A DNA stretch of 7,806 bases, taken from a virus (lineage: Duplodnaviria; Heunggongvirae; Uroviricota; Caudoviricetes). Positions 1 to 7,806 of the stretch are shown piece by piece. How positions within the stretch are numbered: the stretch's first letter is position 1; every line of letters begins with the position of its first letter. The DNA lies in IMG/VR virus record IMGVR_UViG_3300029459_000073, positions 1 to 7,806 of that record. The stretch is one strand, 5' to 3'. The notes under the pieces were generated by a model. The model was not told the origin of the DNA, searched no databases, and saw only the letters and a program-made list of their open reading frames with translations. Made by a program: the position numbers and the translations under genes.

Positions 1-208
1 CAGCAATATCCATGAAAAACTGCTTCGCCTGCTTTTTCGCCTCAGCTTCGTAAAACTCCAGCGTGGCACCTTCAGTACGGTCAAGACTAATCGCCACATT
101 TGGCAACAACAGTGGCGGATACCCACCAATTTCCAGTGCCACAGTAACAGCTATCTTATCCGGGTAATGATTTATCCCTTTTACAACCAGTTCATATTTT
201 TTATTCAT
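1..208 (-). CDS. DUF1327/YdfR-like lysis-cassette protein, N-terminal part only (gene runs off the left edge)
   Basis: Minus-strand ATG at 208-206 lies 4 nt after the holin stop (TAA 215-213). The frame stays open to position 1 (MNKKYELVVKGINHYPDKIAVTVALEIGGYPPLLLPNVAISLDRTEGATLEFYEAEAKKQAKQFFMDIA...). It is absent from the ORF track because the window edge truncates it. Its position directly after the holin matches ydfR (DUF1327) in the K-12 Qin prophage. The family name is recalled, not computed. Confidence 0.55.
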   Translation of the reverse strand, partial: MNKKYELVVKGINHYPDKIAVTVALEIGGYPPLLLPNVAISLDRTEGATLEFYEAEAKKQAKQFFMDIA

Positions 209-212
209 CGCT

Positions 213-428
213 TTACTCTCCCCGCGCCGCCTTACGACGGTCCTCTCTGATTTTGAAATACAGGTTAGTCAGATATGTCAGCAGCCCAAACAGCAGACTT
301 CCCAGTACGCCTATTGCCGCCCACTGAGACGGGGAAACCCTGTCCAGCAGCTGCAGGAACCAGTAGCCCGTCCCCACCGCTGACGTGGTGTATGACACAC
401 CTGTTGTGATTTTTTCCATCTGGTACAT
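213..428 (-). CDS. S: Class II holin (phage 21 S21 / Stx-phage S type pinholin) with dual start
   Basis: This 71-aa ORF matches the S21 holin pattern as I recall it ([23 protein letters not shown]...[22 protein letters not shown]). It has two hydrophobic segments and a basic C-tail. Met1 and Met4 (MYQMEK; ATGs at 428 and 419) form a dual start. GGAG at 439-436 sits 7 nt before the first ATG. Confidence 0.9.
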
Positions 429-503
429 ACCCCGTCTCCCGCAATCCGGAAGCTCACAACAACAAGTGGGGCATCAGCTCACACCGACAGCCCCTGCGCA
501 TGG

Positions 504-773
504 TTACATCATCATTTCGCCGTCAGGCTGAGGCTCACTGCCACCATCAGGCTGAGACACGACACCATCTGAAACAGCACTGTCACCCGCACCGTCTTCA
601 GGCCCGTGAGCAGCCGTTACCCCCAGCAGTTCATCAAGAATGGCATCCACTTCAGCATCAAGACGCGCCTCAAGATTCTGACGAAGTTGCTGTTTCAGTG
701 CGCTCCTGACTTCTTCAGAGCGCAGAACATCCTTCACTGCTTCAGCAGTGACCAGCGATTTTATTTCTGACAT
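504..773 (-). CDS. Small acidic phage protein of unknown function (89 aa, DUF826-like)
   Basis: I use the internal ATG at 773-771 of the 504..947 track ORF (MSEIKSLVTAEAVKDVLRSEEVR...). The upstream extension overlaps the 811..993 gene and has no RBS. A GAGAAA purine tract lies just upstream of the ATG. The N-half is helical and charged; the tail is a low-complexity acidic D/G/P/S stretch ending in MMM. The DUF826 label comes from memory of Stx-phage gene order. Confidence 0.55.
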   Translation of the reverse strand: MSEIKSLVTAEAVKDVLRSEEVRSALKQQLRQNLEARLDAEVDAILDELLGVTAAHGPEDGAGDSAVSDGVVSQPDGGSEPQPDGEMMM

Positions 774-810
774 GGTATTTTCTCGTTGAAAGGTGTTGTT
801 AAGAAAGTTG

Positions 811-993
811 CTACGGAATGAGAGGCTCTTCGGGTTTTGTTCCGGCTGACTGACTGGCACTGATTTTCTCAGCGGCCCTTTTGTCAATCTGTCTGCGCCA
901 GAAATCGCGCACTGCCCTGTACCCACCCGAAAGAAGATACAGCACACAGACCGCCGTACAGAAGTACAGCATCACCTGATGAATAAATGTCAT
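811..993 (-). CDS. Small single-pass membrane protein (60 aa), unknown function
   Basis: ATG at 993-991. The N-terminal hydrophobic helix (HQVMLYFCTAVCVLYLLSGG) is followed by a basic and then acidic tail. The gene has no good SD of its own, but its ATG overlaps the stop of an upstream micro-ORF (ATGA at 993-990). Confidence 0.55.
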   Translation of the reverse strand: MTFIHQVMLYFCTAVCVLYLLSGGYRAVRDFWRRQIDKRAAEKISASQSAGTKPEEPLIP

Positions 994-1034
994 AGTTTCT
1001 TACCGTTATGGTTGACAATGAGAACTGTTTTCAT
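990..1034 (-). CDS. 14-codon micro-ORF (MKTVLIVNHNGKKL), candidate translational-coupling ORF
   Basis: Its ATG (1034-1032) overlaps the TGA of the upstream 15-codon ORF (1033-1031). Its own TGA (992-990) overlaps the ATG of the 60-aa gene (993-991). It is too short for the ORF track; I read it by hand. Confidence 0.25.
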   Translation of the reverse strand: MKTVLIVNHNGKKL

Positions 1035-1078
1035 TTAAAAACCGATATACGAAAGCATCTTTTCTTTACATTCTCCAT
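1031..1078 (-). CDS. 15-codon micro-ORF (MENVKKRCFRISVFK) with consensus Shine-Dalgarno
   Basis: GGAGGT at 1091-1086 is followed by a 7-nt spacer and ATG at 1078-1076. The first two SD bases lie in the 3' arm of the hairpin that follows the nanS-p stop. Confidence 0.3.
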   Translation of the reverse strand: MENVKKRCFRISVFK

Positions 1079-1089
1079 TGGGATTACCT

Positions 1090-1126
1090 CCGCCAGCTTC
1101 CGTTCCTGCCGCTGGCGGCTTTTTTT
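1090..1126 (+). terminator. Intrinsic terminator oriented for the plus strand, abutting the nanS-p stop codon
   Basis: An 8-bp stem CCGCCAGC (1090-1097) / GCTGGCGG (1111-1118) encloses a 13-nt loop. It is followed by C and T7 (1120-1126). On the minus strand the same hairpin has an A-tract before it and no U-tract after it. Confidence 0.5.
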
Positions 1127-1127
1127 A

Positions 1128-3089
1128 TCATGCCGCGGCATCCGCGTTGTTCACTTCCACCTTCACACTGTCAATCAGCAGCGTATATGTCGCCGCCTTT
1201 GATATGCCTGTCAGTTGCAGTTTGTCCGCCGCCCCTGATGCCGGAGATTTCACCAGTGTGAACGGCGTCCCCCGTTTCTCATCCAGTACCGGCGTCACCT
1301 GAATGCTGTTGTTTCCGGCAAACTCAAAAGCCAGTGTGTGCCATCCGTTATCAAAGACCCCGAACGTATCCAGCTTCGCATTCGGCTTCTTGTGGTACAT
1401 CGCGTTCAGGTTCGTCGCATCCGTCTGCAGGAAGAAGGACATCAGCATGTCGTTGCCTTCCTCTGCCAGCGTCACTCCCTCCGGCAGGGACGACAACTGC
1501 CAGTAAATGCCCAGGGCAAACCGATTCGGCACCAGTGAACCCGGCAACTTAAACCGTACGCTCACACGTCCCCCCTTCTTCAGTAACTCCACTCCCTGTC
1601 CGGCTGCATCATGCTCCAGAAACCAGATGTGGTTTTCCGGTTTATTCAGTTGCAGGGCCTTACCTCCCGTAGCCCCCGCATCACTGACCACCGCTTCAGC
1701 AATGTTTTTGTTAACATTGTCTCCGCTCGCCGGTTTGTGATAATAGCGCCAGCCCTGTGATGCCAGGTCTTCGCCGGACGCCAGCAGACTCATCAGGGTT
1801 CGGTTACTGACCGGGGCTTCCGGCTCTCTCTCCGTACCTTCACCGGAAGGTCCGGTGGGCTTCACCGTATCAGGCTGTTTTCCGGTAATGAATTCAGCGG
1901 TTCTCCCGGCATGCACAAGAATCGCCGTTGCCAGACGGTCGGAAATAATCCCACGACGTGCCCATGATCCAAAATGCGTTTTACGGTCGGCCGTCGTCCA
2001 GGTTTTGGCGTCCGTTCGACCACCGGCTCCGTAATACCCAATATCCGCAACATCCGGATCTTCTGACGGCTCGTTGGTACCCACATTTCGCCCGTTTTCA
2101 TCCGTCATAAACGGCACAAAGAAGATTTTTTTTGCGGATTTCGTCTTGTATGCACCATACACCGCATCGTATTGCGAAGAATAAGTCTGCTTCCAGTAGT
2201 AGGTCGTGTCGCCACAAATCCAGGGAACCGATGACGGAGAGCCCCCGAGACACTGACCTCCGAATTCCGACAGGTCAGAACGATATTTTTCCACCATGGA
2301 ATCAAACAGCCCCGGCTGAGTGGCGTATGCACCCTGTTTCAAATCAAACTCGCCCTGCATCCAGACCACTGCAAGCAGAATATTTTTAGGGTTAGCCTTC
2401 AGTGCGGCCTGAGTACGGGTAAGCAGGTCCTTGTACAGTGGCTTATCTACACCCCAGCGTGCCGAGGTCTCGCTTGCGCCGGTGGATTCGCTGAAGGTAC
2501 CTTCATCGCCCGCCAAAAATGCAGAACCACCACGGCAGCACGGAACCAGAAGAATACCGGCATTCGCCGGAATAAACGGCAACAATTTCTTCGCGATATG
2601 TAATCCCTGCCCCACGCATCCATACTGAGCTGCGCTGGCTTTCGGGTGTGAAAACTTACTCAAATCCTGAACATCATGCAGGCAGTGGTCCGCAGGAATA
2701 ATGTCATTGTAGTTACAGGACGCACCACCCGGCGTGACAGTGCTGCGACGCGCCAGCTGTTTAATACGCGGGTCCGGACGGTCATATGTCTCCGGCAGCG
2801 GAAGCCCTTCACCATACGCCATACCGTTTGACTGCCCGGCCAGGGCAACAACAAAGTAATACTCCGGGTTGCTGGTGGTGCTGATAACTGCGCCTTCTCC
2901 ATCCGACGGCTTCACCACCACAGGTGTGGTGACATCACCTTCCGCCGCAATGGCCTGCATCAGGGTATAAGGCGTGATGGCCACCGGACTGCCAAATGGC
3001 TGCCACCCCTCCTTCAGTTTTTGTGTCAGTCGCTCCGCAAGGTCTGACGGCGACGCCGCCCTGACCACGTCATAGTGTTTAAATGCCAT
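1128..3089 (-). CDS. nanS-p: Prophage sialate O-acetylesterase NanS-p (DUF1737 N-domain + SASA/SGNH esterase + C-terminal lectin-like domain)
   Basis: A 653-aa ORF with GGGAGGA 5 nt upstream of the ATG at 3089. The N-terminus (MAFKHYDVVRAASPSDLAERLTQKLKEGWQPFG) is the DUF1737-type start of the large ORF found downstream of stx in Stx phages. The esterase block GQSN (aa 85-88, nt 2826-2837) is followed by GxxYGEG. The last ~200 aa are beta-rich and look lectin/ConA-like. The position between Q and the holin matches nanS-p loci. Confidence 0.85.
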   Translation of the reverse strand: MAFKHYDVVRAASPSDLAERLTQKLKEGWQPFGSPVAITPYTLMQAIAAEGDVTTPVVVKPSDGEGAVISTTSNPEYYFVVALAGQSNGMAYGEGLPLPETYDRPDPRIKQLARRSTVTPGGASCNYNDIIPADHCLHDVQDLSKFSHPKASAAQYGCVGQGLHIAKKLLPFIPANAGILLVPCCRGGSAFLAGDEGTFSESTGASETSARWGVDKPLYKDLLTRTQAALKANPKNILLAVVWMQGEFDLKQGAYATQPGLFDSMVEKYRSDLSEFGGQCLGGSPSSVPWICGDTTYYWKQTYSSQYDAVYGAYKTKSAKKIFFVPFMTDENGRNVGTNEPSEDPDVADIGYYGAGGRTDAKTWTTADRKTHFGSWARRGIISDRLATAILVHAGRTAEFITGKQPDTVKPTGPSGEGTEREPEAPVSNRTLMSLLASGEDLASQGWRYYHKPASGDNVNKNIAEAVVSDAGATGGKALQLNKPENHIWFLEHDAAGQGVELLKKGGRVSVRFKLPGSLVPNRFALGIYWQLSSLPEGVTLAEEGNDMLMSFFLQTDATNLNAMYHKKPNAKLDTFGVFDNGWHTLAFEFAGNNSIQVTPVLDEKRGTPFTLVKSPASGAADKLQLTGISKAATYTLLIDSVKVEVNNADAAA

Positions 3090-3242
3090 GAATCCTCCCG
3101 GCCTGGATAATATTGTGAGTAAAATGAGGAGCGGGCTGAAGTCCGGAAGTTACAGGACAATGGCAGAAGATAGACAACAGCCCGCAATACGAAAAAGGCC
3201 GCGCTATTGCGCAGAGTGATTACTGTCGGATATTATTCGCCA

Positions 3243-3311
3243 GCTGAAATATTACTTCACGTTTTGTTGTTTATTCCTTGCCGCCCGCGTCTCCCAGCGC
3301 GGGATTTTTTT
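3243..3311 (+). ncRNA. Candidate ~70-nt plus-strand small RNA (promoter-like TTGCGC-N18-TATTAT at 3207-3236 to the terminator at 3284-3311)
   Basis: A plus-strand intrinsic terminator has no plus-strand CDS to serve. A sigma70-like promoter sits ~75 nt upstream. The body is U-rich (CACGUUUUGUUGUUUAUUCCUUG) before a GC stem. This is a prediction only. Confidence 0.2.
3284..3311 (+). terminator. Intrinsic terminator, plus-strand orientation
   Basis: An all-GC 6-bp stem CCCGCG (3284-3289) / CGCGGG (3298-3303) encloses an 8-nt loop. It is followed by A and T7 (3305-3311). Confidence 0.6.
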
Positions 3312-3312
3312 G

Positions 3313-3342
3313 TCCATAAGAAAGCCCCTCCGGAGAGGGGCT
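3313..3342 (-). terminator. Intrinsic terminator, minus-strand orientation
   Basis: An 8-bp stem AGCCCCTC (3323-3330) / GAGGGGCT (3335-3342) encloses a tetraloop. On the minus strand it is followed by TTCTTATGG. It is convergent with, and 11 bp from, the plus-strand terminator. Confidence 0.5.
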
Positions 3343-3657
3343 GGAGAGTGGCGCTATGTGCCATTGCATGGTGCCGGGTGCCTCCCGGTGAGTTCAGTAT
3401 CAGCACCTGAACCCGCACAGAAAGGATAAGGGTCGGTGACAAAACACCAGTTGCTGATTGCCCCTCCGCACAGGGGGATTCACCATGCCAGTTTCTTTTA
3501 ACAAACTCCCCGCAAACCAGACAACAGTCAACCGCCTGAATTGTGAGGTATTTAAAAATTTCAACGGGTAACTGATACCCTGCTAATCGCCTGATGCTTT
3601 CTTTTTCAGCAACGGGAAAGCAACAACCACCACACCCACCAGCCGCCCATTTACCAC

Positions 3658-3685
3658 AAATAAAAAAGCCTTCACTGCGGAAGGC
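3658..3685 (-). terminator. Intrinsic terminator ending the 65-aa gene
   Basis: The minus strand reads GCCTTC-CGCAGT-GAAGGC followed by TTTTTTATTT (3667-3658). The TGA stop (3674-3672) spans the loop/stem junction. Confidence 0.65.
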
Positions 3686-3869
3686 GTCTGTAACAACCGA
3701 ACTGATAGTCTGCCAGACCCGCCATAACCAGCTGGGTCAGTATTAACTGGCAGCGTTCGCGTGAAAGGTAAGTATTCTGCGCTATCTCCCCGACTGTCGC
3801 CGGTTCGGTGACGCTTAATTCATTAAACACCACTCTGGCGGTTTCTGTCATATCCTGCTGTTTCAGCAT
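3672..3869 (-). CDS. Small (65 aa) winged-helix/HTH-like protein, unknown function
   Basis: I use the internal ATG at 3869 of the 3672..3992 track ORF, preceded by AAAAGGGAAAAAGAC. The track's start is a GTG abutting the U-tract of the upstream terminator and has no RBS. The sequence MLKQQDMTETARVVFNELSVTEPATVGEIAQNTYLSRERCQLILTQLVMAGLADY has the T-x-x-EIA...S...v...L..L...G pattern of wHTH recognition units. An alternative ATG lies at 3851. Confidence 0.5.
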   Translation of the reverse strand: MLKQQDMTETARVVFNELSVTEPATVGEIAQNTYLSRERCQLILTQLVMAGLADYQFGCYRRLPQ

Positions 3870-3992
3870 GTCTTTTTCCCTTTTCCGGTTAACGTGACAC
3901 ACCAATAACTCTTGTCGAAAAAGCCAGCAACCTGAAAGAACGGTATTAATAACCACCAGCGAATTTATTGCGCTACTGTATATCGCGGACAC

Positions 3993-4016
3993 AAAAAAAC
4001 CACCTTCCGGTGGCTT
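3993..4016 (-). terminator. tR'-like intrinsic terminator downstream of the Q-like gene
   Basis: The minus strand reads AAGCCACC-GGAA-GGTGGTTT with a run of 7 T (3999-3993). A second, weaker hairpin (GCGAAA...TTTCGC, 4044-4023) lies just before it. It sits 78-101 nt after the Q-like stop, as expected for a lambdoid late-promoter-proximal terminator. Confidence 0.7.
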
Positions 4017-4066
4017 CCTTTTGCGAAAAAAACTTGCGTTTCGCCTCGCGATACAGCTTTGCGAAG

Positions 4067-4104
4067 CTTATACGGATTGAAGCAGTTTATTGATCAGTTT
4101 GCAA
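4067..4104 (-). promoter_or_regulatory. Candidate late promoter (PR'-like) with a second -10-like hexamer in the initial transcribed region
   Basis: The minus strand reads TTGCAA (4104-4099), N17, TTCAAT (4081-4076), followed 3 nt later by TATAAG (4072-4067). Lambdoid PR' promoters carry a promoter-proximal -10-like element that causes the sigma70-dependent pause used by Q. This assignment rests on position and motif only. Confidence 0.35.
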
Positions 4105-4657
4105 CATTTTTCTCTGTAACAAAAGCCATGCGCATGGGGGCATATAACATAAATTCAGATACCCCCAACCATTGATCAATTCGGCGTCTGCACGTAACCA
4201 ACGACCAATCAGGATGATCTGCATTTAACCTTTCGGCCATTTTCAGTTTGCTCATTCCCCGTCCTTCGTACCTTTGCCGGAGAACATTGATTAGCCCGGG
4301 ATATTCCCCAAGCACCTTACTGATAACGCGATCAATAATCAACGCCTCTGTGTCTGTACAATGTGACAACCAGCTCTTCTGCTTTCCTCTTGTCATATCC
4401 CGAAAAAATGCCTCAAGTTCCGGTTTTTCCAGCCCGGATTTCTTCATTCTGCGCAAAACCTCATTAACTGCTGTTTTCGTCAGCTTTTTCGAAACCAGTA
4501 ACCGGTTAAACATATTTCCGGATTTACCCCCACCGATATACGACCACCGCCCCCACATCCGTAATTTCCCCTGGATCCAGACTGCTTCCAGCGTGTTCAG
4601 GCGTAAATGTTCGCCGCTTTTGCCTGTAATTTCCGGATATATCATATTTACGCTCAC
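4094..4657 (-). CDS. Late-gene antiterminator Q-like protein (DUF1133-type)
   Basis: The position is canonical for Q: directly after rusA and directly before a promoter-plus-terminator pair. The N-terminal L..WG.W motif (GKLRMWGRWSYIGGG) resembles the ERWGAWA motif of QuuD/82-type Q proteins. The track start is a GTG at 4657. The ATG at 4645, with GTGAG 7 nt upstream, is at least as likely (MIYPEITGK...). The family name is recalled, not computed. Confidence 0.6.
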   Translation of the reverse strand: MSVNMIYPEITGKSGEHLRLNTLEAVWIQGKLRMWGRWSYIGGGKSGNMFNRLLVSKKLTKTAVNEVLRRMKKSGLEKPELEAFFRDMTRGKQKSWLSHCTDTEALIIDRVISKVLGEYPGLINVLRQRYEGRGMSKLKMAERLNADHPDWSLVTCRRRIDQWLGVSEFMLYAPMRMAFVTEKNVAN

Positions 4658-4663
4658 TCACTC

Positions 4664-5023
4664 TCAATTTTGTAAATCTTCACACCCAGCCNNNNNNNNN
4701 NNNNNACCAGATACTGGCTGACCACGTACAATATTGATTTCATCAAACTGCTCATCGTCCATTAACAGTCCTGCATGCGTCAGCGCATCCAGCGGCGCTT
4801 TCAGGATATTGTCCAGGTCGCGACGGCGCTTATCCGGTGGCTCTGCCATAATCCTGATTACCAGCCTTCCGGACAGGCTTAATTTCAGCCGCTGCTGGCG
4901 AACAATAAGCGCCACAGCCCGGCGATAACGCTTTCCCTCCTCCGAGATAAAATATGTGCTGCCACGGCGTCGCCAGTAAGTGTTCACCGTCGGCGGGTAA
5001 GGTAAAACCAAATCTATGAGCAT
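4664..5023 (-). CDS. rusA: Holliday-junction resolvase RusA (3' end uncertain because of the N run)
   Basis: LPYPPTVNTYWRRRG...PPDKRRRDLDNILKAPLDALTHAGLLMDDEQ matches the RusA core (PDRRRRDLDN..K...DALT.AG...DD.Q). ATG at 5023 is preceded by AAGAGGTGA. The GTG at 5026 is the track start. The C-terminus after the N run is better explained by another frame ending at 4654 (see findings). Confidence 0.85.
   Translation of the reverse strand: MLIDLVLPYPPTVNTYWRRRGSTYFISEEGKRYRRAVALIVRQQRLKLSLSGRLVIRIMAEPPDKRRRDLDNILKAPLDALTHAGLLMDDEQFDEINIVRGQPVSGXXXXXAGCEDLQN
4692..4705. other. Run of 14 N (masked or unresolved bases) inside rusA
   Basis: Read directly from the sequence. Confidence 1.
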
Positions 5024-5035
5024 CACTCACCTCTT

Positions 5036-6082
5036 TTACCCAAGCACGCCAGTTGCAAAGGCGTGATCAAGAAAACGAAAAATTAAATCAACCTGAGAAC
5101 CATGCTTTTCTTCGAACGCCAGAGGATCCGCATGAAGCTCGTTGTGATGCTCCCGACACAGCGGTAGCGTGAAAATATCGTGAGATTTTGTCCCCATTCC
5201 GCCCTGACCATGACCAATCAGGTGATGGGGATCGTCGGCTGGCTTACCACAACACGCACACGGCTGTGTCTTCACCCAGCGTGTGTATTTCTCGTTAACC
5301 CAGCGGCGACGTTTAGGTCGTTTCATGAAAGATTCCGGAGACTCAGGATCAACGGCAATGCTGACCACCGTCTTTTCCTGTGGTGGGTTCTGTTGCTGGT
5401 GGGCGTGAGNNNNNNNNNNNTTTTTTGTGCGCTGTTTCAGTATGCTGGTGGCGGTCTGCTCTCCCGGTACGATGTCGCTTTCACGGTACATTGAGCGGAT
5501 TTTTTCCGCACGCAACCCCAGCGAACGACGTAATACCGCTTCCGGTAGCGCGTCCGCCACCTGATTGTGGACCGCCCACCAGGATAATTCAGCCAGCGAT
5601 AATTCCCGCTCCTGTGTGCCATTCATTGCGTGACGAATGACGTCAATCATCCATGCTGACAAGTTTTGGTGAGCAAGTTGCTCAAGTGATTCGGAGGTCT
5701 GGTCACGCAACTGGTTGTCGCAGTGCCAGCACAACACCATTGCGCCGGTACCATAACGGTGAATGACGGTTTCGCTGTGATGATAATCGCCGTGTGGCCA
5801 CTGGCAGGATTTAATATGGCGCAACAGCCAGTCAGACAATGCACCAGCACCACCAGCAGCACGAATCACCCGTGCGTTACTGAAAAACGGCAGCAATGTT
5901 TTGTCTTCCACCAGCGGCTGGCGAACGGCAGGAACGACCCCGGACGGCAGATTACGCATGCTTTTCGGTTCCGGCTCCACCAGTACCCGGGTATTGTGGA
6001 ATACCGGCATGGATTCACGGCCCGGCTTAACGATCACCAGCCCGAGTTCCGGTACCAGAACAGGTCGAAGTAATACTCGCAC
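5036..6082 (-). CDS. DUF968 / YdfU-like protein with two Cys/His (HNH-like) motifs
   Basis: A 348-aa ORF with a GTG start at 6082, 1 nt after the upstream TAA. The C-terminal CACCGKPADDPHHLIGHGQGGMGTKSHDIFTLPLCREHHNELH is an HNH-like metal-binding motif. A degenerate copy lies at aa 93-125. Size and position (before Q, after a hok locus) match ydfU of the K-12 Qin prophage. The frame is continuous across the 11-N run. Confidence 0.8.
   Translation of the reverse strand: MRVLLRPVLVPELGLVIVKPGRESMPVFHNTRVLVEPEPKSMRNLPSGVVPAVRQPLVEDKTLLPFFSNARVIRAAGGAGALSDWLLRHIKSCQWPHGDYHHSETVIHRYGTGAMVLCWHCDNQLRDQTSESLEQLAHQNLSAWMIDVIRHAMNGTQERELSLAELSWWAVHNQVADALPEAVLRRSLGLRAEKIRSMYRESDIVPGEQTATSILKQRTKXXXXXHAHQQQNPPQEKTVVSIAVDPESPESFMKRPKRRRWVNEKYTRWVKTQPCACCGKPADDPHHLIGHGQGGMGTKSHDIFTLPLCREHHNELHADPLAFEEKHGSQVDLIFRFLDHAFATGVLG
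5410..5420. other. Run of 11 N (masked or unresolved bases) inside the DUF968 gene
   Basis: Read directly from the sequence. It falls in the linker between the two Cys/His motifs and preserves the reading frame. Confidence 1.
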
Positions 6083-6083
6083 G

Positions 6084-6362
6084 TTACCTCCAGATGCGTT
6101 GCTGGAATGTGCGGGACGGACGCGGTGAGCGTTCGGAGTAAGGAAGCCTGACGGAGATTATCCAGTGACGATAATCGAGGCTGAGGGCTTTCTTAATCTC
6201 GTATCCGTGTCTGCGGTAGCACTGAATTAGCCACTCGGCCTGTTCTTCAGTGCATGGGGGATGCTGGAACCAGTCAGATTTGAAAGTGCGGGAACGCCGC
6301 CCGTGCCTGCTGGCAAAGACGGCAGAATCATCAGAATTGTGTAATTTGGTATCGTGCGCCAT
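6084..6362 (-). CDS. Hypothetical 92-aa protein (occupies the position of rem in Qin-type prophages)
   Basis: I use the internal ATG at 6362 of the 6084..6491 track ORF (MAHDTKLHNSDDSAVF...). The upstream 43 codons span the hok terminator hairpin, so they are unlikely to be coding. The TAA (6086-6084) lies 1 nt before the DUF968 GTG, suggesting coupling. I recognise no domain. Confidence 0.5.
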   Translation of the reverse strand: MAHDTKLHNSDDSAVFASRHGRRSRTFKSDWFQHPPCTEEQAEWLIQCYRRHGYEIKKALSLDYRHWIISVRLPYSERSPRPSRTFQQRIWR

Positions 6363-6434
6363 CGGTTGTCTCTGCTGGCGCAGCAGGTGCCAGTTGTTCA
6401 GGCTGGCGTGCGAATTGTAAACCAGAATGCCAGG

Positions 6435-6461
6435 AAAAAACAAAACCCGCCGAAGCGGGTT
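6435..6461 (-). terminator. Intrinsic terminator of the hok transcript
   Basis: The minus strand reads AACCCGC-TTCG-GCGGGTT followed by TTGTTTTTT (6443-6435). Confidence 0.8.
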
Positions 6462-6467
6462 ACGTGC

Positions 6468-6480
6468 GGGTGCGTTGAGG
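6468..6480 (-). promoter_or_regulatory. fbi-like 3' fold-back element of hok mRNA
   Basis: Minus-strand CCTCAACGCACCC is complementary, with one bulged C, to the predicted mRNA 5' end GGGTGCTTGAGG (6855-6844). Confidence 0.55.
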
Positions 6481-6529
6481 ATGCCTGACACATCAGAGGT
6501 GGCGAGGGATTTCTCCCTCGCCGGGTCTC

Positions 6530-6685
6530 TTACTCCTCAGGTTCGTAAACTGTGAAGACAGCGACCTCCGTCTGGCCGGTTCGGATTCGTACCTCGCAGA
6601 GGTCTTTCCTCGTTACCAGTGCCGTCACTATGACGGTTAAACAGATGACGATCAGGGCGATTAACATCGCCTTTTGCTGCTTCAT
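6530..6685 (-). CDS. hokD: Hok/Gef-family type I membrane toxin (51 aa)
   Basis: MKQQKAMLIALIVICLTVIVTALVTRKDLCEVRIRTGQTEVAVFTVYEPEE is, as I recall it, almost identical to HokD/RelF of the Qin prophage and clearly belongs to the Hok family. ATG at 6685 is preceded by AAGGAG (6700-6695). Confidence 0.9.
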   Translation of the reverse strand: MKQQKAMLIALIVICLTVIVTALVTRKDLCEVRIRTGQTEVAVFTVYEPEE

Positions 6686-6742
6686 AGCCTGCTTCTCCTT
6701 GCCTTTCGGCACGTAAGAGGCTAACCTACATGTGTCTAGCAT
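6530..6742 (-). CDS. mok: Mok-like overlapping reading frame (in-frame N-terminal extension of hok, 70 aa)
   Basis: ATG at 6742 with GAGG (6754-6751) 8 nt upstream. It shares the stop with hok, as for mokC/hokC in K-12. Confidence 0.55.
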   Translation of the reverse strand: MLDTCRLASYVPKGKEKQAMKQQKAMLIALIVICLTVIVTALVTRKDLCEVRIRTGQTEVAVFTVYEPEE

Positions 6743-6806
6743 GAAATTGGCCTCAGATTAATGTTAAGCGTCTTGCAGGACGCGTAATGTTAACTGGGGC
6801 TTTTCT
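6734..6806 (+). ncRNA. sok: Sok-like antisense RNA (approximate ends)
   Basis: The plus strand has TTGCCT (6699-6704), N17, TAACCT (6722-6727). The predicted 5' tail (about 6734-6757) is antisense to the mok ATG and SD. A 15-bp hairpin with one mismatch follows (6758-6793), then CTGGGGCTTTTCTCT. The ends are not determined. Confidence 0.4.
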
Positions 6807-6843
6807 CTATCTGCCTTTTGGTATTCATGCCTGAGACAGATAG

Positions 6844-6855
6844 CCTCAAGCACCC
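6844..6855 (-). promoter_or_regulatory. tac-like 5' element of hok mRNA
   Basis: The minus strand reads GGGTGCTTGAGG, starting 7 nt after the -10 hexamer. It resembles the GGCGCUUGAGGCU 5' end of R1 hok mRNA as I recall it, and it pairs with 6480-6468. Confidence 0.55.
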
Positions 6856-6861
6856 GCAGCA

Positions 6862-6889
6862 ATTCTACTTAACTATCCTTTCCCCGCAA
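6862..6889 (-). promoter_or_regulatory. hok/mok mRNA promoter
   Basis: The minus strand reads TTGCGG (6889-6884), N16, TAGAAT (6867-6862). The predicted transcript from about 6855 to 6436 is about 420 nt, the usual size class for hok-family mRNAs. Confidence 0.55.
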
Positions 6890-6896
6890 ATCGTTT

Positions 6897-6980
6897 TTAT
6901 CCCCAGCGACAAATCGAATACACCACCAGCGCCACCGCCATTGCGATCCCTACCGTTGTGAATGCCTCAGGCCAGGTCAT
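6897..6980 (-). CDS. 27-aa hydrophobic micropeptide ([27 protein letters not shown])
   Basis: Read by hand, as it is too short for the track. Its ATG (6980-6978) overlaps the TGA (6979-6977) of the 114-aa gene. It has one predicted TM helix and a TAA at 6899-6897. Confidence 0.35.
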
Positions 6981-7321
6981 CGTAAAACATCCTCTGCGCT
7001 TATCAGTCCGTTTCGCTTCAGGTAGTCCATCGCCTTACCCGGCAATTTACAGTCCGGCTTCGTTTTCCTCAGTTGCCAGGTTAACTGCTTTACCAGCATG
7101 GTTAACTCGTCGACCAGACGCTGATGTCCCACTGGTTTGTATTCATGCAATTTACCGGCTGGCTCTGCTGCCAGCGATGCCAGTGCGATTTCCAGAACAG
7201 CAATATCTATCTTATATGTGCGGATGATGTCATGGTCGATTGTGCCCGGTATGCACAGTCTCTGTGCTTCAATAGTCTCCTCTGCGTGAGCTATTAACTG
7301 CTCTCTGGTAAAAGTGGTCAT
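6977..7321 (-). CDS. Hypothetical 114-aa protein, predicted helical
   Basis: Its ATG (7321-7319) overlaps the TGA (7320-7318) of the upstream nuclease gene. There is no competing ORF, since the 6958..7227 plus-strand ORF is antisense and low-complexity. I recognise no domain with confidence. Confidence 0.65.
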
Positions 7322-7806
7322 GCCGCGCTTCCTTCTTGCTTATTAACGATTACACCGTCATATATTTCATTAAGGTGTCCCCTCAACTCCATGCGCCTTA
7401 ATGCAGACAACATGTAATCGCATTCAACCTGCTTATTTCCAGTAAATGGCTTATCGTCAGGATCACCCCAACAGCAATTACCCTTGGGCCACCCATGTAC
7501 TTTCCGTACTCTTCCGTTAACAACGTGAAGTAATCCCCAGCCAGGTGGTAAATCCTCAATTGAAATAATTCCCGGCTCACTAATAAAGAATCTCCAGTCG
7601 CCCATGCCAAGAGAGGGATTTTTACGGAAACGCTTTTTTCTATCTGCCAACAAGTCAGCACGAGAACACTTCGCCTCTATCAGGCATGATGCTGAATTTC
7701 TGAATCCCATAGCATCTGGCTGTTCTCCGGTACTGGTTACAGCAACAAAGCGGTCATGAAAGCAAACCTTGAACCCGTTGCGCTTAAGGAACCTGTACGC
7801 AATCTG
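7318..7806 (-). CDS. MmcB-like PD-(D/E)xK nuclease-fold protein (N-terminus beyond the right edge)
   Basis: The frame of the 7318..7710 track ORF stays open upstream to 7806 ([60 protein letters not shown]...). The PD ... IEAK spacing fits a D...ExK nuclease core. The [11 protein letters not shown] string after it is the signature I associate with the MmcB-like family (PF06319). This is recalled, not computed. Confidence 0.65.

Follow-up and report, generated by a model that had tools for sequence, protein, structure and literature searches.

The stretch of DNA analysed here (hereafter the window) comprises positions 1 to 7,806 of the IMG/VR virus record IMGVR_UViG_3300029459_000073, assigned to the Caudoviricetes, and harbors, directly downstream of a Q-type late antiterminator gene, a 65-codon open reading frame (ORF) with a predicted winged-helix product, which is the subject of this analysis. 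All features belonging to the finding lie on the minus strand, and coordinates are read accordingly. On this strand, a Hok/sok module is followed by a DUF968 gene, RusA, the Q-type gene, a hairpin with a run of seven T residues (T7), the 65-codon ORF, a second hairpin, the small RNA (sRNA) gene STnc100, a nanS-p-type esterase gene, and a class II holin gene. The order of Q, terminator, small gene, esterase, and holin, proposed in a preliminary description of this DNA, was borne out by gene calls, Pfam matches, and the terminator scan. Comparison with related loci revealed that the small gene usually precedes a conserved structured RNA leader and a methyltransferase gene, and that the window holds a truncated derivative of this cassette.

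The 65-codon ORF is a genuine gene under maintaining selection. It extends from an ATG at 3869-3867 to a TGA at 3674-3672 on the minus strand (65 amino acids (aa); translation MLKQQDMTETARVVFNELSVTEPATVGEIAQNTYLSRERCQLILTQLVMAGLADYQFGCYRRLPQ), and a Shine-Dalgarno sequence (AAAAGGG) is located 8 nucleotides (nt) 5' of the ATG. Synonymous divergence (dS) was saturated between genera with a nonsynonymous divergence (dN) of ~0.1, and the median dN/dS was 0.15 over 160 usable pairs. At the protein level, homologues from E. coli, Salmonella, Klebsiella, Citrobacter, Kluyvera, Buttiauxella, Erwinia, Mixta, Proteus, Providencia, and Plesiomonas retain both the ATG start and the N-terminal MLKQQDMTE, and an intact ORF of 63-67 aa was detected in 71 of 80 IMG/VR loci and in 23 of 26 species-level loci. 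A GTG-started ORF of 106 aa (3992..3672), the choice of some gene callers, was rejected because its GTG lies in or abuts the T-run of the upstream terminator without a Shine-Dalgarno sequence, and because the N-terminal extensions of the homologues (P0007, P0105, P0121, P0152, and P0170) are mutually unrelated. This longer ORF scores above the 65-aa ORF against PHROG 331, yet the extension is not conserved, and the alignment of related loci showed that what is conserved upstream is a DNA box and no peptide. A hairpin over the start codon (TGCTG-AAA-CAGCA, 3868..3856) was also discarded, as relatives lack it and use CTA or TTA for Leu2.

For the encoded protein, AlphaFold2 prediction on a 16-sequence alignment (pLDDT 93, pTM 0.80) yielded a helix H1, a bridge strand, helices H2 and H3, and a b-hairpin wing, in agreement with the winged helix-turn-helix (HTH)-like character noted in the preliminary description. 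Three helices, a b-strand between H1 and H2, and a C-terminal wing are the hallmarks of the winged-helix superfamily, and solved winged-helix domains match the model structurally; the protein is thus predicted to be a single winged-helix domain and nothing else. Its best-conserved parts are the predicted recognition helix CQLILTQL, a basic wing residue, and the N-terminal MTE motif. The first 8 residues show high conservation despite varying synonymous codons, and model confidence is lower there (pLDDT 77). With ~+6/-7 charges counted from the sequence, the composition is near-neutral or slightly acidic.

The protein matched PHROG 331 over residues 1-64 (E 1.4e-37, 128.7 bits), and RefSeq names such products 'hypothetical protein' or 'TrmB family transcriptional regulator'. 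The match to the N-terminal HTH of TrmB (PF01978) was sub-threshold (18.0 bits, E 0.0026, cut-off 25.6), and the C-terminal sugar-binding effector domain and the coiled-coil dimerisation region of TrmB are absent, the 65 aa making up the winged helix only. Membership in MarR was defined by a Pfam MarR or MarR_2 match above cut-off, N- and C-terminal dimerisation helices, and a length of about 140 aa; the MarR_2 match reached 14.7 bits, below the cut-off of 27, and the 65 aa carry no flanking dimerisation helices. All Pfam matches of the protein were below cut-off, NCBIfam models gave none, the PADLOC search gave a chance-level match only, and the PDB profile search gave nothing meaningful. A Z-alpha domain was rejected, its signature residues (Asn and Tyr in helix 3, Pro-Pro-x-Trp in the wing) being absent, and the Mu Com family (PF10122) was not matched by the protein, which has two Cys only, versus the Cys4 of a zinc ribbon. 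Because Pfam was sub-threshold, the NCBIfam and PDB searches were empty, and the Z-alpha residues are absent, no specific winged-helix subfamily is assignable from sequence.

The usual partner of the small gene is a PF01555 methyltransferase gene (~350 aa), which starts ~150 nt 3' of the small gene in 23 of the 26 species-level loci. The enzyme is of the beta class (DPPY-first) and belongs to the M.EcoGI/GII family, whose members are prophage-borne, non-specific for adenine, silent in normal growth or in the lysogen, and deleterious when expressed (PMC5778455). At least 1870 complete E. coli genomes contained the junction of gene, spacer, and methyltransferase at a coverage of ≥80%. Among 80 close IMG/VR methyltransferase loci, the leader abutted the ATG in all 80 and the winged-helix gene lay upstream in 73, its place being taken by unrelated genes or the contig end in the remaining 7. 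Phage 1720a-02, which carries an enzyme very similar to M.EcoGII (Murray et al., PMC5778455), has the methylase directly downstream of the small gene and the pair placed after Q. The cassette has a stereotyped order, namely Q, a PR'/tR'-type terminator, a promoter-like box, the winged-helix gene, a hairpin, the leader, and the methyltransferase, followed by tRNAs and stx (in phages encoding Shiga toxin, Stx), the nanS-p esterase, and the lysis genes. An inserted 110-aa ORF separates the winged-helix gene from the leader in two IMG/VR loci (L044:1986-2318 and L046); hence leader and methyltransferase form a module separable from the gene, and a recombination seam lies where the leader begins. 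Within the methyltransferase ORF, a LexA-box-like palindrome (TACTGTAAAAATAAACAGTG) was observed at +9..+28, with 15-16 of 20 SOS-box consensus positions and a CTG-N10-CAG core (e.g., L006:5351-5370, L118:1509-1528, and L115:1509-1528). It occurred in 21 of 22 lambdoid-type loci, PY54, and Hafnia yong2 and was absent in N15, VHML, OS31, phiARM81ld, and ST2-1pr; the palindrome may represent an SOS operator or else form an RNA hairpin just past the start codon.

The spacer in front of the methyltransferase is a conserved structured RNA leader with strong covariation. The ~148/150 nt between the small-gene hairpin and the methyltransferase start exceed the gene itself in conservation (L007:5201-5348, L005:5148-5296, L112:1864-2006, L113:1819-1965, L115:1356-1506, L111:1726-1873, and others). 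When the proposed five-helix structure was applied to 52 distinct close sequences, 94% of cells paired, and 8 pairs were changed on both sides, against 3.2 in shuffles (none of 500 reaching 8) and at most 4 in slid controls. A covariance model (R1), built from the alignment of close leader sequences, found the leader directly 5' of a homologous methyltransferase in Hafnia yong2, PY54, Serratia OS31, VHML/MAR, N15, and PhiR46_1, and before a Com-like gene followed by the methyltransferase in Aeromonas phiARM81ld and Vibrio ST2-1pr, with scores of 27-76 bits in these additional phages. Across 13 diverse sequences, 27 of 36 pairs showed compensatory changes, in 74 cells, compared with 13.2 +/- 2.1 pairs in shuffles and at most 15 pairs and 24 cells in slid controls; this alignment was fitted to the model, which favours the structure, and the margin over the controls is large. 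Helix 3 of the leader pairs GGUCA and AAG with CUU and UGAUC, 9-10 nt just 5' of the methyltransferase AUG, and a Shine-Dalgarno sequence is not evident before this AUG. The Rfam 15 search with the leader returned none at E ≤ 10 for L007 and none at E ≤ 0.5 for seven distant loci. A mini-ORF in the leader (MGGWWVL) was rejected, since it is not conserved and the changes within it compensate pairing.

Distant homologues of the small gene were recognised in N15 (gp51), PY54 (ORF59), PhiR46_1, and Vibrio ST2-1pr (hhalign probability 93%, E 2.7e-7, 62 columns), each located upstream of the same leader and methyltransferase, then holin and lysis genes. Judging from this conserved order, the association of the winged-helix gene with the leader and the methyltransferase appears to be old. 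In N15 (NC_001901.1), the AUG of the RNA leader aligns at L112 position 2001; the annotated methyltransferase start of gene 52 at 2235 (L112:2001-2235) looks too far downstream, with protein homology from 2001.

The winged-helix family is limited to temperate phages and prophages of Enterobacterales, distant homologues being carried by N15-like phages and a single Vibrio phage. When 1.84 billion cluster representatives were scanned exhaustively with HMMER, only 61 related clusters were retrieved, indicating a narrow family, and many of these were frameshifted or C-terminally replaced (P0012, P0022, P0074, P0093, P0125, P0131, and others); such disrupted variants form small clusters, whereas intact forms are found on hundreds of contigs. 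Within its range the gene is common, being present in 2268 of 5426 complete E. coli genomes (42%) at 4241 places, with up to 7 per genome, and cannot be called rare. The preliminary description had placed it as an alternative cargo in the slot where Stx phages carry stxAB. This is contradicted by the Stx2 phages themselves, in which the order is Q, small gene, DNA methylase, three tRNA genes, stx2AB, and nanS-p; the intact 65-aa gene occurs directly 3' of Q in Stx2a, Stx2k, and 1720a-02 phages, and the label 'possible pseudo' in Stx2_14040 reflects an expected longer ORF, the 65-aa frame being intact there. Because the small gene co-occurs with stx2AB, and upstream of it, in the same phages, the gene is a Q-proximal companion of stx and no substitute for it.

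In the window, the cassette is broken off. No difference from full-cassette loci occurs up to ...GGCTGGTGGGTGT; this match spans the hairpin and the first leader bases (...AAATGGGCGGCTGGTGGGTGT, down to 3632), and divergence sets in beyond it. The recombination junction at 3632/3631 falls inside the first leader helix, 4 nt from the Chi site at 3643..3636. The window lacks the remaining leader sequence, the methyltransferase and tRNA genes, and any toxin cargo; as cassette membership was taken to require a leader within ~10 nt and a PF01555 methyltransferase, the window represents a truncated derivative. The search of the window for the leader with nhmmer and the covariance model gave no match because merely ~20-30 nt are left. 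Beyond the junction, 85 nt (3547..3631, minus strand) containing a GCTTTC...GAAAGC hairpin have no counterpart in the Stx2a phage locus, after which the sequence corresponds to the region between stx2B and nanS-p of Stx2a phages, STnc100 included. These matches indicate that recombination joined the intact winged-helix gene to the STnc100/nanS-p region. The same junction was identified in 201 complete E. coli genomes, mostly at 100% identity. Chi sites (GCTGGTGG) number 8 in the 7.8 kb window versus ~0.24 expected for random sequence, and two same-strand sites flank the small gene; the one at 3643..3636 belongs to the conserved first leader helix, and the upstream Chi block (GCGCTGGTGG) is present in several related loci. 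The coordinates of all features are compiled in Table 1.

Table 1. Features of the window, with the strand and the evidence for each.
Feature	Position	Strand	Evidence
sok RNA of the hok/sok type I toxin-antitoxin module	6855..6680	-	Rfam RF01794, 120 bits
Hok-like ORF of the hok/sok-type module (module span 6530..6855)	6742..6530	-	
DUF968 gene	6082..5036	-	
RusA gene	5026..4664	-	
Q-type late antiterminator gene, 187 aa, DUF1133 / Phage_antitermQ	4657..4094	-	PF06576 348 bits; PF06530 31.9 bits, cut-off 26
tR'-like intrinsic terminator	4013..3993	-	Terminator scan and fold
Chi site GCTGGTGG upstream of the small gene	3960..3953	-	Pattern count
Conserved promoter-like box	3930..3894	-	Alignment of 28 loci
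65-aa gene with predicted stand-alone winged-helix product, PHROG 331; protein identical to RefSeq WP_000917768.1 type	3869..3672	-	
Hairpin GCCTTC/GAAGGC over the stop codon, then TTTTTTATTT; intrinsic-terminator-like	3685..3658	-	Terminator scan, fold
Remnant of the methyltransferase RNA leader (5' 20-30 nt), containing Chi 3643..3636	3664..3632	-	Match to full-cassette loci
STnc100 prophage sRNA gene, neighbour outside the cassette	3517..3312	-	Rfam RF02076, 143 bits vs gathering score 47, full length
nanS-p-type sialate O-acetylesterase gene, 653 aa; next protein-coding gene downstream	3089..1128	-	Pfam SASA, DUF1737, DUF6645
Class II holin gene	428..213	-	
Chi sites GCTGGTGG	2871, 5395, 5444	+	Pattern count
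Chi sites GCTGGTGG	3636-3643, 3953-3960, 5850-5857, 5908-5915, 6923-6930	-	Pattern count

Regarding expression signals, the upstream terminator, situated 81 nt past the stop codon of the Q-type gene, consists of a stem at 4013..4000 (CCACC-GGAA-GGTGG plus A/U pairs) and T7 at 3999..3993 (-17.7 kcal/mol, z -3.5). Behind each Q gene of the aligned loci lies a hairpin with a T-run, irrespective of the Q family (three unrelated families in related loci), and the tR'-like terminator is therefore a constant feature. Downstream, the hairpin GCCTTC-CGCAGT-GAAGGC (3685..3668) contains the TGA and is followed by TTTTTTATTT (T6). It is kept by compensatory arm changes in ~17 of 24 related loci, covering most Enterobacteriaceae (e.g., GCCTCCA/TGGGGGC, GTCGCCA/TGGCGGC, and CGCTGCT/GGTGGCG across genera), and the U-tract is strong solely in the E. 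coli type and a few others, with the hairpin missing in Proteus and Providencia. The earlier claim of flanking terminators thus stands insofar as a hairpin and T-run lie on both sides, but the downstream one does not deserve the word 'strong' (-8.9 to -9.5 kcal/mol, z -0.7).

The sigma-70 consensus scan upstream of the small gene found no promoter, as had been stated before, but the candidate TTGCTG-N17-TATTGG, previously regarded as weak, turned out to be conserved across genera. The box comprises TTGCTG (3930..3925), a 17-nt spacer, TATTGG (3907..3902), and TGTGTCAC (3901..3894) on the minus strand, and its hexamers match sigma-70 poorly and stay under the consensus-scan threshold. CTTGCTG and AGAGT-TAYNTG-TRTGTCAC were conserved in 28 of 28 aligned loci, from E. 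coli to Proteus and Plesiomonas, with a spacer of exactly 17 nt and variable sequence. A related box, CTGGATG-N17-TACAGT-TTGTGTC, precedes N15 gp50-gp51 (L112:1193-1230) and the PhiR46_1 homologue (L119:694-731), and the form shared by lambdoid and N15-like loci reads CTKGMTG-N17-TAYNKK-TGTGTC. Such a conservation pattern argues for a promoter or operator and suggests a dedicated recognition factor or operator behind the box. The small gene has the position of a Q-dependent late gene, 3' of Q and the terminator on the strand of the lysis genes, and the same layout was found behind four Q families. PR' itself has no confident location: the consensus scan for the PR' of the window's Q found nothing, and a candidate picked by hand (TTGCAA-N17-TTCAAT) was unconvincing and not relied on. 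As the promoter-like box is conserved, expression of the small gene by Q only is unproven. A role as a Q-specific cofactor was rejected, since Q genes of the lambda, 82, 21, and DUF1133 types occur in free combination with the winged-helix subtypes, which do not track the Q family.

As for the surrounding genes, the Q-type gene product matched PHROG 753 ('anti-termination protein Q-like', 1e-75), and the esterase is homologous to the yjhS/nanS-p located 3' of stx2B in the Stx2a phage. STnc100, located between the small gene and nanS-p, ends in the AGCCCCTCTCCGGAGGGGCT hairpin, which is also in the terminator scan list. A weak isrK-like match at 6440..6521 (minus strand, 27.8 bits), ending in a GC hairpin and T-run, and a second one at L117:1215-1276 (27 bits) are both below the gathering score of 50 and may be chance or a diverged prophage sRNA. 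No tRNA gene was found in the window. N runs at 4692-4705 (14 bases) and 5410-5420 (11 bases) break the RusA and DUF968 frames, giving X in the translations; they are masked or unresolved bases with no biological meaning.

Based on the fold and the genomic context, the winged-helix protein is proposed to be a small nucleic-acid-binding regulator active at the onset of late transcription, which would help to time or limit the toxic, normally silent methyltransferase, either through contact with the leader RNA or at the DNA level, through the conserved box before its own gene. Transcription would reach the small gene by Q-dependent read-through of the upstream terminator, with a weak promoter of its own being possible. 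In this prophage the protein would be an orphan, potentially still able to act in trans on complete cassettes of co-resident prophages. The descriptive part of this account, i.e., fold, selection, cassette architecture, RNA structure, and truncation here, can be stated with high confidence; the regulatory link to the methyltransferase is tentative and somewhat short of an even chance, and the layered statement as a whole is about evenly balanced. A more specific form of the proposal, in which the winged-helix protein would recognise the leader and open the long-range, start-hiding helix, a Com-like function with an unrelated structure, so that the methyltransferase would be translated solely under high Q-driven late transcription, is conceivable but rather unlikely. 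The leader might, besides, act as a switch that responds to a ligand or a protein, since its conservation alongside this type of methyltransferase reaches from E. coli to Vibrio and Aeromonas and includes phages without the winged-helix gene.

Several observations weigh against a regulatory link. The leader and methyltransferase occur without the winged-helix gene in the 7 of 80 close loci mentioned above and in VHML, MAR, OS31, and phiARM81ld, so the methyltransferase has no strict need of a cis copy; conversely, the gene is intact without an adjacent methyltransferase in the 201 genomes sharing the window's junction, which fits a methyltransferase-independent function. Moreover, two winged-helix subfamilies, ~50% identical, precede near-identical leaders and methyltransferases, and co-evolution is not visible. 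In ST2-1pr, a Com-like gene accompanies the winged-helix homologue, and the winged-helix protein is therefore no simple replacement for Com. The position directly after Q could partly be a common insertion niche and no sign of functional coupling. Finally, we infer RNA or DNA binding by the protein from fold and context alone, and its non-basic composition would be unusual for a nucleic-acid binder.

Part of this evidence would suit an autonomous 'moron', in which the gene, equipped with a weak promoter and a terminator of its own, would have been inserted after tR', would be active in the repressed prophage, and would control genes of the host or of other prophages independently of the methyltransferase. 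The fixed 17-nt spacing of the box in all aligned loci and its related form in N15-like phages are in line with such a unit, as are the hairpin and T6 directly past the stop codon, which amount to a factor-independent terminator of its own, the gene's persistence without the methyltransferase in the 201 genomes, the occurrence of leader and methyltransferase without it, and the insertion that separates the units in L044 and L046. On the other hand, the box, with TTGCTG and with TAYNTG carrying G at -7, resembles a sigma-70 promoter poorly and fails the consensus scan, and the U-tract is degenerate in most genera, with no hairpin at all in Proteus and Providencia; given a weak or absent downstream terminator, transcription would continue into the leader in many phages. 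The order is also kept across lambdoid, N15-like, and Vibrio phage architectures, which is unexpected for a free-standing moron, and this alternative therefore seems rather doubtful. The reading given in the preliminary description, a strictly Q-dependent late DNA- or RNA-binding factor serving as alternative cargo in the toxin slot, agrees with the location 3' of Q and a good terminator, the winged-helix fold, and the lack of a consensus promoter. Its 'replaces stx' part is refuted by the co-occurrence with stx2AB downstream in the same phages; the gene is conserved and backbone-associated, being found with four Q families, and the promoter-like box leaves Q-only expression unproven, so that the reading as a whole is improbable.

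It is also conceivable that the winged helix does not contact nucleic acid at all and acts as a protein-protein adaptor, binding the methyltransferase (for activity or targeting), RNA polymerase, or a host factor, with a contribution from the flexible N-terminal MLKQQDMTE. The near-neutral or slightly acidic composition would fit, as would the conserved N-terminal residues with their variable synonymous codons and lower pLDDT, and protein-binding stand-alone winged helices (RPA32C and the T4 MotA N-terminal domain) are among the structural neighbours. The best-conserved parts, in contrast, are the recognition helix and the basic wing residue, the usual nucleic-acid contacts, and co-variation with the methyltransferase subtype is not visible, making an adaptor quite improbable. 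Lastly, the window copy might be a functionless leftover of a cassette destroyed by recombination, given that the leader and methyltransferase are gone and that frameshifted or C-terminally replaced variants exist in databases. The ORF, Shine-Dalgarno sequence, box, and hairpin are nevertheless all intact here, and the protein does not differ from the common form; in addition, 201 genomes carry this junction together with an intact gene, and the disrupted variants are small clusters as opposed to the hundreds of contigs with intact forms; a leftover is thus highly improbable.

The small gene is already catalogued (hypothetical/'TrmB-like', PHROG 331) but uncharacterised; it is common and is here split from its usual partners. 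No paper on the small gene or the leader was found in a literature search, with subscription journals mostly outside its reach and absence accordingly unproven. M.EcoGII-type enzymes are non-specific adenine methyltransferases that have been characterised as a molecular-biology reagent. They are presumed to shield phage DNA broadly from restriction, and the small gene and the covarying leader are obvious candidates for their off/on control, which is not covered in the papers found. In addition, the cassette lies between Q and stx in many Stx2 phages, on the toxin-gene transcript, and the terminators, promoters, and RNA structures there could therefore affect toxin output.

Several known systems invite comparison. 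N15 gp51, PY54 ORF59, and the PhiR46_1 protein (75-77 aa, uncharacterised) share the N-terminal MTE and an xFIIEQM/xLILTQL helix with the window protein, but in these N15-like phages the winged-helix gene is separated from the leader by the annotated late promoter and terminator and thus lies upstream of that terminator. TrmB, MarR, and ArsR regulators differ in their dimerisation helices and effector domains, which the bare 65-aa domain lacks. The controller (C) proteins of restriction-modification (R-M) systems are likewise small DNA-binding proteins encoded upstream of R-M genes, delaying or limiting a potentially lethal enzyme; they are Xre-type HTH dimers on palindromic C-boxes, whereas here a predicted winged helix accompanies an orphan methyltransferase without endonuclease, and inspection of the alignment revealed no C-box-like palindrome in the conserved box. 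In Mu-like prophages, a Com-like gene precedes other non-specific adenine methyltransferases, namely hin1523, nma1821, and hia5 (Drozdz et al. 2012, PMC3299994). These pairs and that of phiARM81ld resemble the present cassette in combining a non-specific or orphan N6-adenine methyltransferase, silent in the lysogen, with a small regulator gene in front, and differ in that their regulator belongs to the Com family, while the lambdoid cassette has no Com-like ORF and carries the winged-helix gene upstream of the leader. The Com-like zinc ribbons of phiARM81ld (p55) and ST2-1pr matched PF10122 at 27.9 and 26.1 bits (cut-off 22.9), and the methyltransferases of these two phages are ~51-56% identical to the partner enzyme of the small gene and share its leader. 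The ST2-1pr (MZ496293.1) Com-family ORF (L116:1355-1468), immediately upstream of the methyltransferase gene, is unannotated. With Mu com-mom, in which Com is a 62-aa zinc-ribbon translational activator, the cassette has in common a small gene before a toxic, late, anti-restriction DNA-modification gene and a start region of the modification gene sequestered in RNA structure, here leader helix 3. The differences are a winged helix in place of a Cys4 zinc ribbon, non-overlapping genes, a ~148-nt multi-helix RNA in place of the single stem-loop in Mu, and RNA binding that is a prediction here. In its logic, the cassette is akin to Mu com-mom and to the pairs of Com and methyltransferase, with a winged helix and a much larger RNA.

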